NCBI GenBank assembly: GCA_050250255.1
Contig: JBFWOZ010000030.1
Span: 1-34,430, forward strand
Reading direction: 5' to 3'
DNA from: Bdellovibrionales bacterium
GTDB lineage: Bacteria > Bdellovibrionota > Bdellovibrionia > Bdellovibrionales > DASUEL01
DNA: 34,430 bases
Shown: piece after piece, positions 4,073-29,947 of the stretch
Numbering within the stretch: position 1 is the first letter of the stretch
How the letters are laid out: every line of letters begins with the position of its first letter
Position numbers and translations under genes: made by a program
Notes under the pieces: model-generated
What the model saw: the letters and a program-made list of their open reading frames with translations, nothing else
Databases searched by the model: none
Told to the model about the DNA's origin: nothing

Positions 4073-5092
4073 ATGATTCGTATTGGCGTTATCGGCCTGG
4101 GTTTTGGCCGTCATGTACATATCCCGGCGTTGAAATTGATTCCTCAGGCGCAGCTCGTGGCCGTGTCTGCACGAACGGCTCAAAGTGCCGAGGCGGTCGC
4201 CGCGAGCGAAAAGGTTCAGGCCTTTACCGATCCGCTGGAACTCATCGCTTCACCAGACGTGGACGCGGTAATTTTGGCGGTACCCCCCAATGCGCAGCCG
4301 GATTTGATTCGTCAGTGCATACAAAAGAAAAAACATGTCTTTCTAGAAAAGCCTGTCGGCGGTGGTACCGCAGAGGCTATGAAGTTGTATCAAGAGATGC
4401 AAAGGTCGTCACTCATACACATGATCGACTTTGAATTCTGCGATCTCCCCGCTTGGAAAAGCTTCGCGACAGAACTTCCTTCCCTTGGTGAGTTACGACA
4501 AGTCAATGTGTCGTGGAATTCCGAAACCGTTTCGCAAAAAAACTATGCACTCCAAAAAACAAATTCCTGGAAAATTGATCTCACACAAGGCGGGGGCACG
4601 CTTAATAATTTAGGAAGCCACGCCCTTTATTATCTCGAACATTTTTTTGGCCCTATGAAATCTCTCTTGTGCTCTCTCGAGAGCGGAAGCTGGCCGACAG
4701 ATTCGACAATGAGAATGTTGGTAGAGTGGCCGAAATTTGTAGGACAAGTCGTGATTGCGACCAACTGCCCAGGAGGAAACGGCCACCGCATCGAAGTCCA
4801 CGGCAGCGAAGCAAGTCTCCAACTTGATAACTCCACCGCCGACTACATGAGCGACTTCCGTCTCACAAAAACCACACGCGGAAGTATCCGCACAGACCTC
4901 ACACCTCCCGAACCCCCAAGCACTCACAAAGACGGCCGCGTCCAAGCCGTTCACCGCCTCCTCACCCGCTGGATCGAAGGCATCAAAAATAACACCCAAG
5001 TCTCCCCCAACCTCGCCCACGGCGCCCGAGTCGAACACCTCATCGACCAATGCCGCCTCTCCCACCAATCCCGTTCCTGGCAAGCCCAATAA
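4073..5092 (+). CDS. Gfo/Idh/MocA family oxidoreductase
   Basis: IGVIGLGFG Rossmann motif, KHVFLEKP, GGGTLNNLGSH. Confidence 0.9.
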   Translation: MIRIGVIGLGFGRHVHIPALKLIPQAQLVAVSARTAQSAEAVAASEKVQAFTDPLELIASPDVDAVILAVPPNAQPDLIRQCIQKKKHVFLEKPVGGGTAEAMKLYQEMQRSSLIHMIDFEFCDLPAWKSFATELPSLGELRQVNVSWNSETVSQKNYALQKTNSWKIDLTQGGGTLNNLGSHALYYLEHFFGPMKSLLCSLESGSWPTDSTMRMLVEWPKFVGQVVIATNCPGGNGHRIEVHGSEASLQLDNSTADYMSDFRLTKTTRGSIRTDLTPPEPPSTHKDGRVQAVHRLLTRWIEGIKNNTQVSPNLAHGARVEHLIDQCRLSHQSRSWQAQ

Positions 5093-5181
5093 AAGGTGCC
5101 AGTGTCATTTTTCTGGCTACATTGCTTCATCAAAATGGACGCAACGTAGCCAGAAAAATGACACTGGCACCTTTTATTGGG
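5085..5181. repeat. REPIN-like long hairpin element, copy 1
   Basis: Perfect 36-bp inverted repeat (5085-5120 / 5146-5181) plus an inner TTGC/GCAA pair and loop TTCATCAAAATGGAC. Homologous to 27316-27403. Lies between convergent genes. Confidence 0.85.
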
Positions 5182-6628
5182 AGACCCAGTTGCGGGAGGC
5201 GGATTGGGCTTCGGGGAAGAAGTAGCCAAACGAGAAGCCGCCGCGGGAGTAGACGATTTCTTTTGTTTGGAAGTTGGTGGCGCCGGCATCGTGCACGACG
5301 TGGTTCCATTGGTCGGTCGACATGGAAGATGTGTTGACGAAAAGTCGAAAGGTGATGCGGCTTGAGAGGAAGTATAAATAACCAAATTCCGACTGCCAGC
5401 CCAGGAGACCGCGAGTGTCGTTCTTTGATCCGTCCCAAGTCACATGACTTATTGCTACGGAAGGCACAACCTCCGCATAAATCAATCCACCAGGGGTTTG
5501 TACTCCCACTTGAGGGCCCACTCCAAATAAAAAATGATACCAATCAAAGCGTTTATGTTCGATAGCGTTGTACAAATTGTTTTTGAATCGCAGTCGTTTG
5601 TAGTTGGCATCGGCACTCGATACAAAACCGTAATGAAATCTCCAATGGCCACGGCTTTGTGAGGCTTTTAAATTTTTGATGGAGATGTTGCTCAAATAAC
5701 TAAAGGGATTTCCTTCATGAATTTCTTCAGAAGAATATCCCGTCAGATCATCTTTTACGGATGAAACCCCTTGCCCCACGCTCAGACCAAGAGAGTTTGG
5801 CATCAGGAGCACCACTTGCCTCCCAATGTGCTCAAAAGAATCTTCACAAAAATGTTTAAATTTGGTTTTTGGAATCTGCAGAGACCAAGCCGTATTTTCG
5901 TCCGTGTACATATCAACAACGGATCCCTCCACCTTCAAAGCCTCAGGCAGGTCACTCACCACGGTTTCTAAAATATGCGTCGGTTTGACCTTCGATTCGC
6001 TCGAACTGTGTAGAGCTGCATACAAACTTTCTCTTTGTTTTACAGATAAACTTTCTTCTTCGTAACCATGACGACGAAACATGCTTAGACTTTTAAAATA
6101 AGGCTCTACGAAAACGTTTTTATATTTTCGATGGATTTCTTTTTCGAGTTCTTTGGCAATCTCATCTCCCAGGAGACGCCCCACTCCCTTTGGAGGAGCT
6201 ATCACTACTCGCCTCATACGAGTTGCAAATAAAGGTTCCGATCTTTTTTCGCCCCCTAAAGCAATTCGAGGAAGTGCTTCGTAATTCCAAGCCGCTTGAG
6301 TGTACATGTCTATACTCCAACCCACAGGGATCATAGGCCAAAACCAGACGAATAAAAAGTTTCCGGCGAAACTATCTCCCCAGCGATATTTAGTTTCTAA
6401 GTCGAGAGTAATATCTGGCCTTGAAGGGAATTTAATAAGAAGCGACTTCTGCTTAGCTCTTGGAATTTGAATAAAAGTGGGCGTTTTATCTAAAAGCTCA
6501 CTACCCATGTAAACTTCCGCGCCCGGCGGGTCAGTTACCACTTTTAAAGTCTGGTACTGCCCTTGAAAAGTCGAGCACGAGATCAGTCCCATTAAAAGAA
6601 AGGAACATTTCAAAAAACGGCTTATCAT
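5174..6628 (-). CDS. Putative lipoprotein with N-terminal PEGA domain and C-terminal beta-strand-rich (possible OM barrel) region
   Basis: Lipobox-like LMGLISC and PEGA signature LKVVTDPPGAEVYMG...KTP. Alternating aromatic/Gly strands end in GGFSFGYFF. ATG 6628 overlaps the upstream TGA. Confidence 0.6.
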   Translation of the reverse strand: MISRFLKCSFLLMGLISCSTFQGQYQTLKVVTDPPGAEVYMGSELLDKTPTFIQIPRAKQKSLLIKFPSRPDITLDLETKYRWGDSFAGNFLFVWFWPMIPVGWSIDMYTQAAWNYEALPRIALGGEKRSEPLFATRMRRVVIAPPKGVGRLLGDEIAKELEKEIHRKYKNVFVEPYFKSLSMFRRHGYEEESLSVKQRESLYAALHSSSESKVKPTHILETVVSDLPEALKVEGSVVDMYTDENTAWSLQIPKTKFKHFCEDSFEHIGRQVVLLMPNSLGLSVGQGVSSVKDDLTGYSSEEIHEGNPFSYLSNISIKNLKASQSRGHWRFHYGFVSSADANYKRLRFKNNLYNAIEHKRFDWYHFLFGVGPQVGVQTPGGLIYAEVVPSVAISHVTWDGSKNDTRGLLGWQSEFGYLYFLSSRITFRLFVNTSSMSTDQWNHVVHDAGATNFQTKEIVYSRGGFSFGYFFPEAQSASRNWVSQ

Positions 6629-15544: not shown

Positions 15545-16642
15545 ATGATCTATACTTTCGTTATGTCGCCTAAAATTCTGTTCGTAAAACTTGGGGCTTT
15601 GGGAGATTTGAGCTTTGCCCTCCCCTCTGCCGAACTCTTCAAAAAAGTGTACCCTCAAGGGCATTTTACCTGGGCTGTGGGCCAATCGGTGCAGAGTTAT
15701 CTTCAGGGTCGGCCGGAGATCGATCGCCTGGTGATTGTGGATGATAAAAATTTGTTTTCGTCCAATCCTCTTAGGCGCGTTCAAGCCTGCCGTGATTTTA
15801 TTGCGCGCTTAGAGCCCGCATATGATCTCCTTGTCATTGCTCATAGAAACTTAGCCTACTCACTCCTTTTAAAAAGTTTCGTCAAAGGACCTATCTTTCA
15901 ACTCGCACGCGAAGAACACCCTTTCTTAGAAAAATTTGGAATCCACAGCATCATCGCAACTCCTCTTGAAACCCATGAAAGCGTCGGGATTGGGAATACT
16001 CTTCTCGCCGCGATGAGATCTCTAAAACCTACTAGCCCTCTTCCTTTGTGGAACGGAAAAATTCAAAGGGCCCAAGGATTTTCAGCGGGAAAATCGCCCA
16101 TTGTCTCAAATTTGCCTTCCGATTATCTCGTTTTACAAATGGGCGGAGCGGGTAATTTAAAAACAGAATTTCGTTTAAAAAGTTGGGCGCACTGGAAAGA
16201 TTTGGTGAAACTTCTGTTAGAAAAAACAGAACAAAATTTAGTTTTTATCGGAGCACCAAACGAAAAAACGGAAATCGAAGAGATTCTCTCTCAGTTCCCA
16301 ACAAATTCGCGGATCCATAACCTCACCGGAAAAACAAACTTTCACGAACTTGAGCACATTTTATCTCAAGCAAAAGGTGTCGTCGGCATTGATTCAGGCC
16401 CACTTCACATCGCCGACGCTCTTCGCGTTCCCACGCTCGGTATTTTCGGCCCTTCAAGCACAAAATCCTGGGGTTTTCTCGGCGAGCGCTCGCAAGCCCT
16501 CAAGCACTCCGTCCCCTGCTCCCCTTGCTATAAAGACGACGGCATTTTCCCCGAGTGCGCCTACCAACACCGCTGCATGACTGGCCTCAAACCCGAAGTG
16601 GTGCTTGAACAGATCGTGAAGAATTTTACTAAAAACACCTAG
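15545..16642 (+). CDS. GT9 (LPS heptosyltransferase-like) glycosyltransferase
   Basis: KLGALGDL, NLTGKT, GIDSGPLHIADAL, IFGPSS, CSPC...C...C tail. Confidence 0.9.
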   Translation: MIYTFVMSPKILFVKLGALGDLSFALPSAELFKKVYPQGHFTWAVGQSVQSYLQGRPEIDRLVIVDDKNLFSSNPLRRVQACRDFIARLEPAYDLLVIAHRNLAYSLLLKSFVKGPIFQLAREEHPFLEKFGIHSIIATPLETHESVGIGNTLLAAMRSLKPTSPLPLWNGKIQRAQGFSAGKSPIVSNLPSDYLVLQMGGAGNLKTEFRLKSWAHWKDLVKLLLEKTEQNLVFIGAPNEKTEIEEILSQFPTNSRIHNLTGKTNFHELEHILSQAKGVVGIDSGPLHIADALRVPTLGIFGPSSTKSWGFLGERSQALKHSVPCSPCYKDDGIFPECAYQHRCMTGLKPEVVLEQIVKNFTKNT

Positions 16643-16664
16643 TAAAAAATCAATTCATACTGCG

Positions 16665-16758
16665 TTTCTAGGATACAGGAATCCGGGAACACGGTATCCT
16701 GGAATAACTCCTGAATCCCTGTGTTCTTGGATTCCGGTATCCCAGAAAACCTGTATTA
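16665..16758. repeat. Imperfect 30-bp inverted repeat built of 8-nt tandem units
   Basis: 16665-16694 pairs with 16719-16748 at 25/30. Units: ctgaatcc/ctgtgttc/ttggattc/cggtatcc/cagaaaac/ctgtatta. Confidence 0.65.
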
Positions 16759-16918: not shown

Positions 16919-17722
16919 CTAATGTGAATGCGTTAATCTGTGGTGTCCCGAGCAGAGTGTCGTGAGGTTTTCGACAGTGTCTTGGCCGCCCTTGCTTCTA
17001 GGTATCAGATGATGGGTGTGTAACCATTTTCTTTCCGTACAGCGCTCACCTTTCTGGTTGCGATGGGTACACTGGCCTTGATCACGTAATTGTATGTGTC
17101 CCGGGACAGAGAAATTCGCGCGATTCTGTAATTTCTGTGCTTTTTGGACTGGATCTTTCTTCTCTAAATAGAGATCCAGCAAAGCTTCAAGAGTCTCTTC
17201 AATGCTCACGTGTTTTTGCTGACGTTGAGATTCCAGCTCTTGTACGCGTTTCAATTTTTGCTGAATTTTTTCAGAAATCCCCATTTGAAGACTCAGTCTT
17301 TCTTCACTCACAAATTTCATTCGCTCAGGAGTGGCTTCTTTAGGAGAAGCTTTCGCCACTTGTTGTTCAAGCTTAGCTTTTGGAAGCTCAATGGCCATCT
17401 TGAGCCATTCGACTTGATTCGCTTTATTAAGGACCGGGGTAATTTTCCTAGCTTTGGAAACCGTAAGATGGCCTGTCTGAATCGCTTGCTTGAGTGCGGG
17501 TACTTCTTTCGCCTTTCGAGCAACAGTGATGAAATTTGAAGCGACACTCTCACTCAGTTTCAAGATCGTAGTCGCATATTCGTAAAGACTTTTGTGGTTC
17601 AGCTTCAAATATACGCGATGTTCGTCAACTTGCTGAAGAATATCGATCAAATCGTTCTCGGCCTTTCGAAATCGTCCAGCAACTTCGAGAGCTTTTTCGT
17701 GAATCTGCATGTGTTTTGTCAT
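16919..17722 (-). CDS. HNH endonuclease with long N-terminal helical region (DUF222-like architecture)
   Basis: RDQGQC...RC...LHTHHLIPRSKGGQDTVENLTTLCSGHH. N-terminal KSLYEYATTILKLSE. AAGGAG RBS before ATG 17722. Confidence 0.9.
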   Translation of the reverse strand: MTKHMQIHEKALEVAGRFRKAENDLIDILQQVDEHRVYLKLNHKSLYEYATTILKLSESVASNFITVARKAKEVPALKQAIQTGHLTVSKARKITPVLNKANQVEWLKMAIELPKAKLEQQVAKASPKEATPERMKFVSEERLSLQMGISEKIQQKLKRVQELESQRQQKHVSIEETLEALLDLYLEKKDPVQKAQKLQNRANFSVPGHIQLRDQGQCTHRNQKGERCTERKWLHTHHLIPRSKGGQDTVENLTTLCSGHHRLTHSH

Positions 17723-18047
17723 GATTTTCTCCTTTAAGCAAAAAGTTAAAGTGACCATACCATGTGTTTTTTAAACGCTATTTTGCTGAAAATGAAATTA
17801 AGGAATACTTTGGAAATCTATTTAAGCTTCGGTAATTTGCCCGAGAACGGTTTATTTAGAATTCGAACGAGAGCAAAAGATTTTTATAAAATAATGAATC
17901 TTAGACGGTTTAAATTTATCAAAATCTCGTCAAATACATTCTCATTTTTATTCCCCAAGTCAATGCACTTTAAATAATAGGAATCCATTTGAGATATAGA
18001 CAAGACACCATAAATGTCTTAATTTTTTACGAACTCTCGGAGGCAAT

Positions 18048-18464
18048 ATGTTACATCGCTTACTAGTATTGGGCGCATTTTTTTATTCATTTTCTAGTGT
18101 GGCTTCTGAACATTGCCAAAATTTATCAGGTCTCTATGTTTCAATGGGATGCATGGATACTTATACAGTAAAGATTGTTCAGGCAGGATGTGACAAAGTA
18201 ACATTCACATTCACAACAAATAATCGTACGGCGACAAATGAACTGATCACAGATGGCCAATTCAAACGATACAATTACCCAGATGGAAGTGGCTATTCAC
18301 TGCAATTAAGCAACTTTACTGCACAAGGCCTTATGAACCTCTTTATTTATTATGACAACAGACATGACCTACCGCCTTCCTTGTCATATTGGAATCTCGA
18401 GTCCAATGGAAACATCACTTTTAAGACATCAGATTACAGCTGCCAATGGATCAAGAAACAGTAG
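18048..18464 (+). CDS. Secreted hypothetical protein (AT-rich, Cys-containing)
   Basis: GGAGG RBS, signal peptide ending SVA, four Cys. Confidence 0.75.
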   Translation: MLHRLLVLGAFFYSFSSVASEHCQNLSGLYVSMGCMDTYTVKIVQAGCDKVTFTFTTNNRTATNELITDGQFKRYNYPDGSGYSLQLSNFTAQGLMNLFIYYDNRHDLPPSLSYWNLESNGNITFKTSDYSCQWIKKQ

Positions 18465-18576
18465 GAGACTGCTGCTTCTCATTCACTGACCGCAATTTGA
18501 ATTTCGGACTCCAAAATACTCAAGACCTGGCTAACTGAGGTTAGGGTTGGTCCAACGTTTTGAATTGGTCCCCGAC

Positions 18577-18927
18577 ATGGGAAACTTTATTCAGACTGAT
18601 TGGATTCAACAACACATCTACATCGTTCGTAGCCAGAGAGTCATGTTGAGCCATGACTTGGCTGAACTTTATCAAGTGGAATCAAAAGTCTTGGTGCAAG
18701 CCGTAAAAAGAAATTTAGATCGATTCCCTGAAGACTTTATGTTTCAGCTTGAAAATCAAGAGCTTCACAACTTGAGGTCACAAATTGTGACCTCAAGTTG
18801 GGGTGGCCATCGCTGGCTGCCTTATGCCTTCACCGAACAGGGAATTGCTATGGCCGTAAACCTACAGAATTTATGGCTAAGCATTAAGTGTTACTATAAT
18901 ACTCTTATCATCTACGAAATACACTGA
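18577..18927 (+). pseudogene. Truncated ORF6N (KilA-N-like) DNA-binding domain gene
   Basis: [21 protein letters not shown]...[17 protein letters not shown]...[11 protein letters not shown]. Similarity stops at about 18852, before the expected LSSVL...RAFV coiled coil. Confidence 0.75.
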
Positions 18928-27293: not shown

Positions 27294-27321
27294 TTATCGG
27301 CCTAACCCGATCTTCCATTTA
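27294..27321 (-). promoter_or_regulatory. Putative sigma28 (FliA) promoter of the RDD-rhomboid operon
   Basis: TAAA-N16-GCCGATAA on the minus strand (consensus TAAA-N15-GCCGATAA). The -10 box ends 6 nt before ATG 27287. Confidence 0.6.
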
Positions 27322-27403
27322 GGTGCCAGGTTCCTTTTCCGGGTCACGCCGCTTCATGAAATGGACGCGGCGTGACCCGGAAAAGGAACCTGGCACCTAA
27401 ATG
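27316..27403. repeat. REPIN-like long hairpin element, copy 2
   Basis: Perfect 37-bp inverted repeat (27316-27352 / 27367-27403) with loop TTCATGAAATGGAC. Homologous to 5085-5181. Confidence 0.85.
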
Positions 27404-27421: not shown

Positions 27422-28060
27422 TTATTCTTTATTTTCTCGGAGTTTGATCGCGTGGGTACGGCCGCTATCGTCCATGAAAACCTGGGCCCATCCTAGTAAG
27501 GCCGTGTTTTTATAAAGAGCGTAATTCTCAATCTTAAACCCACCAATATGTTCTTCTAAGCCCTTTTCGACTTTCGAATAATCTATATAAAATGAACTTT
27601 TATTCTCTACTAAGAAAGAGTTCACATCATTAATATACTTTGGGCGATCTCCGCTCACTCCCGAATCGACAAAATTCACTTCTTTGATTTTGCCATGTTC
27701 TAATTGAAAGGAATATTTTCCCTCAAAGAATCCAAAACGAAGTTGATCAAATGCATTCGGTGGTCGTCCTAGGCTCGCTAACTCCCTTTGGCCTTTTGAA
27801 TCAGCTAATTCATGAGCTAACTTTTTTTGCCAAGCAAGTTGGTCCGCATCCACTCTTTCAAAGCGCTCCGCACTCGCAAGAGATCGCGACGAGGAATGGG
27901 TATCCTGCTTTTTTAAGAGTGTTTGATTCGCAATGATAACGGCAGCGAGTACAGAGACTAACGACGCCGAAACCAGAACCTTCCTTTGTTCCAAATCATG
28001 CCTCACTTGGCCATTCTTAATGCTTTGAACTTTACCTTTTGAATCACCAATTAATTCCAT
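27422..28060 (-). CDS. Membrane-anchored hypothetical protein with RxxAS motifs
   Basis: Single TM followed by SRSLAS and RELAS. GAGGGGG RBS. Confidence 0.8.
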   Translation of the reverse strand: MELIGDSKGKVQSIKNGQVRHDLEQRKVLVSASLVSVLAAVIIANQTLLKKQDTHSSSRSLASAERFERVDADQLAWQKKLAHELADSKGQRELASLGRPPNAFDQLRFGFFEGKYSFQLEHGKIKEVNFVDSGVSGDRPKYINDVNSFLVENKSSFYIDYSKVEKGLEEHIGGFKIENYALYKNTALLGWAQVFMDDSGRTHAIKLRENKE

Positions 28061-28210: not shown

Positions 28211-28346
28211 AAGACAAAGGACCAGCCCTTTTATTAGAGCTGCACTTTATAAACGTGAATCACGGGTTTGATCCCACATCTGCCGAGCGTTGCACGAGAT
28301 TACTTCTCATTTCTTAACAACGAGGGTGAACAAAAAAATGGACATA

Positions 28347-28377
28347 AAAAAAGCTAAACCAAAGGTTTAGCTTTTTT
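28347..28377. terminator. Intrinsic (bidirectional-type) terminator after the Fis-like gene
   Basis: A6-GCTAAACC-AAA-GGTTTAGC-T6, 24 nt past the stop. Confidence 0.85.
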
Positions 28378-29898: not shown

Positions 29899-29915
29899 AC
29901 ATATAATTCTAAAAT

Positions 29916-29947
29916 AAAAAAAGCAGCTTCAAAGAGCTGCCTTTTTT
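29916..29947. terminator. Intrinsic terminator between convergent genes
   Basis: A7-GCAGCT-TCAAAG-AGCTGC-C-T6. Confidence 0.75.

Follow-up and report, generated by a model that had tools for sequence, protein, structure and literature searches.

Two long hairpins in the stretch of DNA analysed here (the window: 34,430 nucleotides, contig C30 of the 3.09-Mb, 95-contig assembly studied, G000) are most probably gene-less, head-to-head TIR (terminal inverted repeat) doublets that are copied and rewritten in trans by Y1/HUH transposases of the TIRYT kind. The arm type of the first hairpin, type A, brackets a TIRYT gene elsewhere in G000, and arms resembling those of the second hairpin, type B, do so in other genomes; mobility of the doublets themselves is what we infer.

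Both hairpins lie where a preliminary description of the window had placed them, at 5085-5181 (copy 1) and 27316-27403 (copy 2). The pattern AGGTGCCAG-N-CTGGCACCT matched the window twice, at 5094-5172 and 27321-27398, and was not matched in any of 100 shuffles. Copy 1 consists of a type A left arm with a 25-nt core (5096..5120, plus strand), an imperfect and asymmetric central core in which a GCTTCA half, a short tip and a TGGACGC half follow each other (5121..5145, plus strand), and an inverted type A right arm (5146..5170, minus strand). Its left outer end and flank (5085..5095, no strand assigned) find an 11-nt mirror in the right outer end and flank (5171..5181, also unstranded). Copy 2 comprises a type B left arm (27323..27347, plus strand), a central core with the motif of copy 1 (27348..27371, plus strand) and an inverted type B right arm (27372..27396, minus strand), while its left outer end and flank (27316..27322, unstranded) are mirrored over 7 nt at 27397-27403. 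As first described, the loops, at 5126-5140 and 27353-27366, have the same orientation in both copies, and the 32-nt left cores differ at ten positions, nine of which are mirrored in the right arm. Folded as DNA, both copies reached z-scores of -16 to -18 on either strand, with none of 200 shuffles equally stable; single arms alone folded no better than shuffles (z of -1.5 and -0.1). The apparent loop turned out on folding to be an imperfect stem with a bulge and a tip of 3-4 nt. An Rfam scan of the window returned no family at gathering score; around copy 1 it gave sub-threshold hairpin matches only, mostly to miRNA precursors.

Copy 1 is located where two convergent genes end. On the left is a Gfo/Idh/MocA oxidoreductase gene (4073..5092, plus strand), a neighbour that is not part of the element, and on the right a gene for a 472-aa protein without a Pfam match (5174..6592, minus strand), likewise a neighbour. 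The left outer end includes the TAA stop codon of the former (5090-5092) and the right outer end that of the latter (5174-5176, minus strand), both three bases outside the arms. A 24-nt similarity of the two gene ends at copy 1 was considered as a sign that a C-terminus had been overwritten; this was rejected because the last residues of the 472-aa protein align with homologues, and the gene end looks native. Copy 2 has a gene on the minus strand to either side and begins 25 nt beyond the stop codon of one of them, at 27422-28060. Elsewhere in the window, two similar sites with an A-run, a hairpin and a T-run (28344-28377 and 29914-29947; repeat family D7) resemble ordinary bidirectional terminators. 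An intergenic region at 16660-16750 holds repeated GGAATCC/GGTATCC-like units that, judged by eye, seem to form an imperfect palindrome. At 16919-18927, within a cell-surface sugar gene cluster, genes for an HNH endonuclease and an ORF6N-domain protein are separated by an AT-rich gap and may make up a small acquired island.

The two hairpins are members of a dispersed family, as had been proposed: by a mismatch scan, G000 contains 130 arms, which fall into six related types (A, B, C, C', D and E) and are arranged as 55 inverted pairs and 20 singlets. The pairs comprise 51 short head-to-head doublets and four long pairs. By type, the short doublets are 15 A (one A site occurring twice, on near-duplicate contig ends), nine B, six C, one C-C', one C'-B, 16 D and three E, so that eight B-B doublets exist besides copy 2; type E is found mostly as singlets. 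The arms begin AGGTG, AGGTA or AGGTC. Each type is nearly invariant across G000, and the mirrored differences between copies 1 and 2 are those that separate type A from type B. Since A and B are each nearly invariant and each doubled, the covariation reported earlier is mostly a difference of type and not RNA-style compensation; the nine mirrored differences are real, but compensatory evolution of a single family is not supported by them. Types A, B and C have an asymmetric centre in common, in which GCTTCA faces GCGTCCA. Instead of a separate protein-binding RNA loop, this conserved central motif is best read as the junction of two inner-end GC[GTA]TCA motifs, which are also present in the arms that flank transposase genes.

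Several individual loci deviate from the simple doublet form. The mixed doublets, C'-B at C16:30159-30225 and C-C' at C22:28226-28358, imply that arm types recombine or have an enzyme in common. At C3:108182-108311 the core and right arm of a type A doublet are repeated in tandem behind it, which resembles tandem REPIN clusters, and the arms of the doublets at C16:27894, C22:12809, C26:10824, C4:36612 and C21:38865 are separated by 54-103 nt of unrelated AT-rich DNA, possibly captured sequence. A 70-nt hairpin with 26-bp arms, unrelated to the family, occurs at two contig ends (C25:70-139 and C72:10-79), the two sites being mutual reverse complements.

The suggestion that a Y1/HUH (RAYT-like) enzyme acts in trans agrees with the arrangement in G000, where the doublets carry no gene and cognate Y1 genes lie elsewhere. 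A profile search gave eight PF01797 matches in the assembly. Three complete Y1 genes (207-212 aa) are each enclosed by one inverted pair of their own arm type, A at C1, D at C8 and E at C16, the inverted repeats around them scoring 29, 25 and 33 points. Window positions 5090-5121 match, at 32 of 32 nt, the inverted repeat found 3' of the Y1 transposase gene C1:52114-52743. A fourth Y1 gene runs into a contig end and is incomplete; a C arm lies on its 3' side, and its protein is 61% identical to that of C1. A transposase gene bracketed by B arms was not found in the G000 assembly, so the enzyme of copy 2 is unassembled, lost or borrowed. Arms that differ from type B by 2-3 nt are, however, present at the 3' end of homologous Y1 genes at three loci (in G287, in G245 and at metagenome locus L297).

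The HUH and Y-x-x-x-NP core of the enzymes encoded between the arms is intact. In the arm-bracketed proteins of G000 the motifs NHYH and Y[VI]YRNP are complete, and H60, H62, Y119, N123 and P124 are invariant in all 68 aligned homologues (alignment A3, which excludes L041, a homologue with an internal stop), every one of which matches PF01797. The closest solved structure is E. coli TnpA-REP (4ER8), both by profile (E 3.6e-11) and by fold (E 1.1e-8; predicted model with pLDDT 94.6), followed in both searches by IS608 or ISDra2 TnpA. In the full-length predicted model, the C-terminal part contains three short helices.

Other Y1 genes of G000 were rejected as cognates, with no A-E arm pair around the C14/C21/C26/C48 group, the C45 fragment or the C3/C20/C56/C57 group. 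A single B arm does lie upstream of the C20 gene, after the stop codon of another gene and with a terminator-like hairpin between it and the C20 gene. The C3/C20/C56/C57 group forms a second Y1 family, whose several copies (C57:8800-9620, C56:20-740, C20:39086-39896 and C3:99790-100717, with pieces on C75, C83 and C93) measure ~240 aa and closely resemble each other; in the C20 copy, NHFL replaces the HUH motif. These genes are preceded by the motif GGGACGGAG, a 9-mer that occurs 33 times in G000; the window contains it a single time, on its minus strand near 16507-16515. The third group (NHLH, lacking Y-x-x-x-NP; C14:17131-17694, C21:1340-1867, C26:10051-10578 and C48:445-1071), of which three copies are 91-92% identical, has none of the A-E arms beside it.

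Conceivably, the doublets could be MITEs mobilised by a DDE transposase or by some other nuclease, for instance the product of the HNH gene in the window. Correia/RUP-type DDE MITEs duplicate TA, and many copies of the present family have TA just outside both ends, where direct and inverted duplications of TA look alike. Yet the distance of this TA from the conserved end is variable and the TA is missing in several copies, and the only long arm pairs in G000 enclose the three Y1 genes and one tyrosine recombinase gene. No arm lies beside the HNH gene (16919-17758), which was therefore rejected as the mobiliser. We consider an origin as MITEs highly improbable. The tyrosine recombinase locus (C40:11697-12335) consists of an inverted type E pair around a gene for a 180-aa protein (PF00589, E 3.5e-24), and may represent a passenger cassette or two independent singlets.

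The pairing of Y1 genes with inverted arms extends to relatives of G000. We found 395 related Y1 loci and examined the best 80, of which those that are named belong almost all to the Bdellovibrionota, a phylum in which the clade is widespread and to which G000 presumably belongs by virtue of these relatives; related genes are present in named cultured Bdellovibrio strains. Within the best 80, an inverted repeat across the gene (score of at least 14) was present at 54 of the 69 loci with full flanks, as compared to four of 69 in a direct-orientation control. Most of the repeats at these best 80 of 395 loci begin with AGGT[AG]C[CG], continue with a T-tract and end near GC[GA]TCA. The HUH motif in the same 80 is NHFH in 41, NHYH in 38 and NHLH in one, and Y...NP is present in all. 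Among 27 relatives that carry the gene, 12 had five or more matches to a generic doublet pattern and 15 had fewer, while the 13 relatives that lack it had one match at most. A reversed-pattern control reached seven in one genome, some of the matches are chance, and kin are not independent. The exact A/B pattern was found in one of 301 genomes of the order, namely G000. The architecture is thus common to relatives, whereas the arm sequences are lineage-specific. In a quick tree of the clade and one other Y1 protein of G000, arm types grouped with gene clades, a grouping that linkage alone predicts and that is therefore no proof of co-evolution. The exact B-arm scan of metagenomes gave no matches, and a looser pattern gave ten loci, two of which (L299 and L300) enclose a non-Y1 reading frame; at L299:1201-2042 the B-like inverted arms surround 263 codons, a possible passenger. 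Six matches to the outer 9-mers in viral contigs, none with a long paired arm, were taken as chance.

Turnover of the arms could be followed in G039 and G224, two closely related genomes from one genus; the genes of this genus cluster with named Bdellovibrio entries. Most arm positions are common to the two genomes. At the transposase locus, segments outside the cassette are 90-100% identical, whereas the sequence between the outer ends is only 68-79% identical (72% for the protein). A diverged cassette between near-identical flanks indicates that the cassette was exchanged in place. The two transposase genes each have their own inner tail, and the tails differ accordingly in number: GGTCTAC occurs 22 times in G039 versus six times in G224, and GCACT not once in G039 versus 15 times in G224. 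The gene itself is flanked by two copies from each of the larger counts (22 and 15). The resident tail is found on both arms of two aligned orthologous doublets and of a third that is aligned on one flank; several G224 singlets retain the other tail, and the GCACT tail is also borne by a single G039 arm, the outer part of which is a variant. Two internal deletions and one switch of arm type start just inside AGGTGCC, and at one G224 site only a collapsed hairpin of two outer ends is present, with a differing right flank. From the sequences of this one genome pair, these breakpoints suggest an exchange point inside the outer end, although ordinary homologous recombination between copies could look the same. 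The comparison of G039 with G224 yielded no clean empty site, most sites being filled in both, and in a genus-wide search at two G039 sites the orthologues were filled, degenerate or too diverged for the junction to be read. Likewise, no excision joint at copy 1 was found in the contigs of three runs from one study, one of them possibly the source sample; contigs drop rare variants.

Placement relative to genes is biased in G000. Gene calls for the stop-codon statistics came from our own simple gene finder, and C54:50, a near-duplicate of C15:60, was left out of the placement statistics. A stop codon lies 0-6 nt outside 50 of 126 arms (47 TAA and three TAG), compared to a random intergenic baseline of 2.6%, the excess of TAA being partly built in because the arms begin with an A-run. 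In addition, 24 of 47 doublets lie between convergent genes, an arrangement that accounts for ~16% of adjacent gene pairs genome-wide. This preference for stop codons and convergent junctions would be expected if the doublets were host RNA elements, either bidirectional terminators or mRNA-stabilising stems, that are kept paired by selection and only incidentally linked to a transposase. Each doublet is also followed by a T-run on both strands, and orthologous junctions in distant genomes carry ordinary terminator-like hairpins. The arms, however, are identical to the TIRs that flank transposase genes, and their types are lineage-specific, the A/B pattern having been found in one of 301 genomes of the order. 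In G039 and G224, moreover, arm type tracks the resident transposase at unlinked sites, and a terminator scan of the window called neither doublet. Selection on an RNA element can account for the retention of the doublets, not for their origin, and we regard this explanation as unlikely. Under the preferred reading, in which the doublets derive from transposase-associated TIRs, service as a 3'-end stabiliser or terminator of neighbouring mRNAs is a likely secondary use, a putative role assigned from position.

Sequence symmetry within the copies does not stop at the arms. The flanks of a copy mirror each other over a mean of 5.6 nt, as compared to 2.6 nt when flanks were permuted within type groups; none of 20000 permutations reached the observed mean. 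At outward positions 5-14, 190 of 500 comparisons were mirrored matches versus 143 expected, and flank mirroring was seen with two, one or no abutting stop codons. Within the arms, 11 variants were mirrored and nine were one-sided, six of the mirrored ones being one recurrent variant of type A. Together with the mirrored flanks, these counts indicate that the arms of a copy are more alike than chance would have it. The doublets of G039 show little flank mirroring, which means that mirroring is not universal. Since template switching has been reported to perfect and extend inverted repeats (PMC5941160; PMC13100816; PMC7202029, as far as the accessible parts of these papers go), a dedicated enzyme is not required for flank mirroring, which might just as well come about at integration.

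Among known systems, the closest are the TIRtrons and their TIRYT genes as defined by Di Nocera, De Gregorio and Rocco in 2013, who in the accessible part of their account also noted TIR dimers (PMC3733652). In both cases a RAYT-like Y1 gene has one long inverted repeat on each side, with no relation to GTAG REPs; further copies of this repeat are scattered in moderate numbers, alone or as dimers, and a genome can hold several gene/repeat pairs. The majority of the published TIRs carry a GGGGWSAS motif and others without it are also given (PMC3733652, accessible part), whereas the arms described here have AGGT[AG]C[CG], and by eye only L076 among the best 80 loci fits GGGGWSAS. Mirrored flanks and in-place replacement are absent from the accessible account in PMC3733652, and Bdellovibrio is not named in its text or four supplements to the extent that these are available. 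A description of such elements in Bdellovibrio was not found in the literature, in a search that covers few subscription papers. The preliminary description had called the family possibly undescribed; this appears to hold for the lineage and the sequences, but not for the class, TIR dimers with TIRYT genes having been published in 2013.

Most TIRYTs have been assigned to TnpA-Y1 subclass 2.1, for which the accessible text of Quentin 2018 gives no REP-like repeats (PMC6006769) and which corresponds to RAYT group 1 of Bertels (PMC6006769 and PMC5581495, both in part). The present proteins resemble this subclass in having NH[YF]H and Y-x-x-x-NP, a length of more than 200 aa and several divergent copies per genome (36-61% identity). 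They differ in that none of the 68 members, many of which were trimmed to the matched region, had a Pfam match for the C-terminal helix-turn-helix-like domain of the subclass (Bac_DnaA_C, HTH_23 or HTH_28, at E of 0.05 or below), and in having FGG, YGG or WGG at the place of the W[EQ]/FQ motif. They also come with clear doublet families, although no REPINs have been reported for group 1; in the accessible parts of the work of Bertels, REPINs are restricted to RAYT groups 2 and 3 (PMC5581495; bioRxiv 2021.07.10.451892; bioRxiv 119743).

This raises the question whether the doublets are canonical REPINs of a group 2 or group 3 RAYT with a GTAG guide. Their architecture is that of a doublet, the closest structure is TnpA-REP, and types A and C do have GTAG on the reverse strand, at its inner end. 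GTAG is absent, however, from types B, D and E, and the proteins score 50-68 bits against NF047646, below its cut-off of 80 bits. They also have NH[FY]H and not DH[LF]H, and the guide-binding segment with W94 and Q95 aligns to FGG or WGG. Canonical REPINs are therefore a very improbable identity for these elements. Insofar as the REPIN-RAYT system of Pseudomonas and the REP/BIME-TnpA-REP system of E. coli are covered by the accessible parts of PMC3116915 and PMC8266576 and by PDB 4ER8, the likeness lies in intergenic, gene-less inverted doublets with the enzyme in trans, slow turnover with positions mostly orthologous between close genomes, and mixed and tandem arrays. Unlike in those systems, there is no conserved GTAG foot here, single-arm hairpins are weak, the guide-binding residues differ, and the gene in G000 is bracketed by single arms and not by REP clusters. 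With IS200/IS605 elements (IS608, ISDra2) the family has the HUH/Y1 fold and a presumed single-strand chemistry in common, but its ends are inverted copies of one sequence, its gene copies are divergent and not near-identical, and its scores against NF033573 are far below the cut-off. Altogether, the clade falls within the definition of TIRtrons and works like a REPIN system, while it lies outside canonical REPINs.

By analogy with the biochemistry of IS608 and TnpA-REP, the TIRYT enzyme would bind a folded arm on single-stranded DNA, cut it via a 5'-phosphotyrosine link and transfer the strand in trans (PMC8266576 and PMC3116915, accessible parts). The doublets themselves would be cassette ends joined without the gene, and they may insert into A-rich sequence where genes end, or take over the inner part of older copies. 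Judging from the one genome pair, cutting or exchange would take place just inside the conserved outer AGGTGCC end, and the interior of an existing copy, or a whole transposase cassette, may be replaced in place by the arm type of the resident enzyme. The mirrored flanks might result from DNA synthesis that folds back or switches template on the long hairpin, be it at integration or passively at a later time.

Taken further, the Y1 clade might constitute a system for rewriting DNA in place, a tentative proposal that is possible but doubtful. Such a system would cut inside AGGTGCC ends that are fixed in the chromosome and overwrite what lies between them. After a horizontal swap of the cassette it would convert the doublets at their old positions to the new arm type, hairpin-primed synthesis would leave an inverted copy of the target flank, and the arms could bracket passengers such as the tyrosine recombinase.

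How doublets of REP spread through RAYT-type enzymes is still unresolved according to the accessible parts of PMC8266576 and PMC3116915. If in-place rewriting holds true, it would supply the missing insertion mechanism of the REP type, and would do so in a culturable genus. By its motifs the clade resembles RAYT group 1, yet it has clear doublet families and several enzyme/arm pairs per genome, and the proposed in-place replacement and the mirrored flanks are the features that merit experimental work. The evidence from the genome pair offers concrete substrates and predicted junctions for the first biochemistry on a TIRYT. Should the doublets also end transcripts, the family would shape the 3' ends of dozens of genes of a predator.
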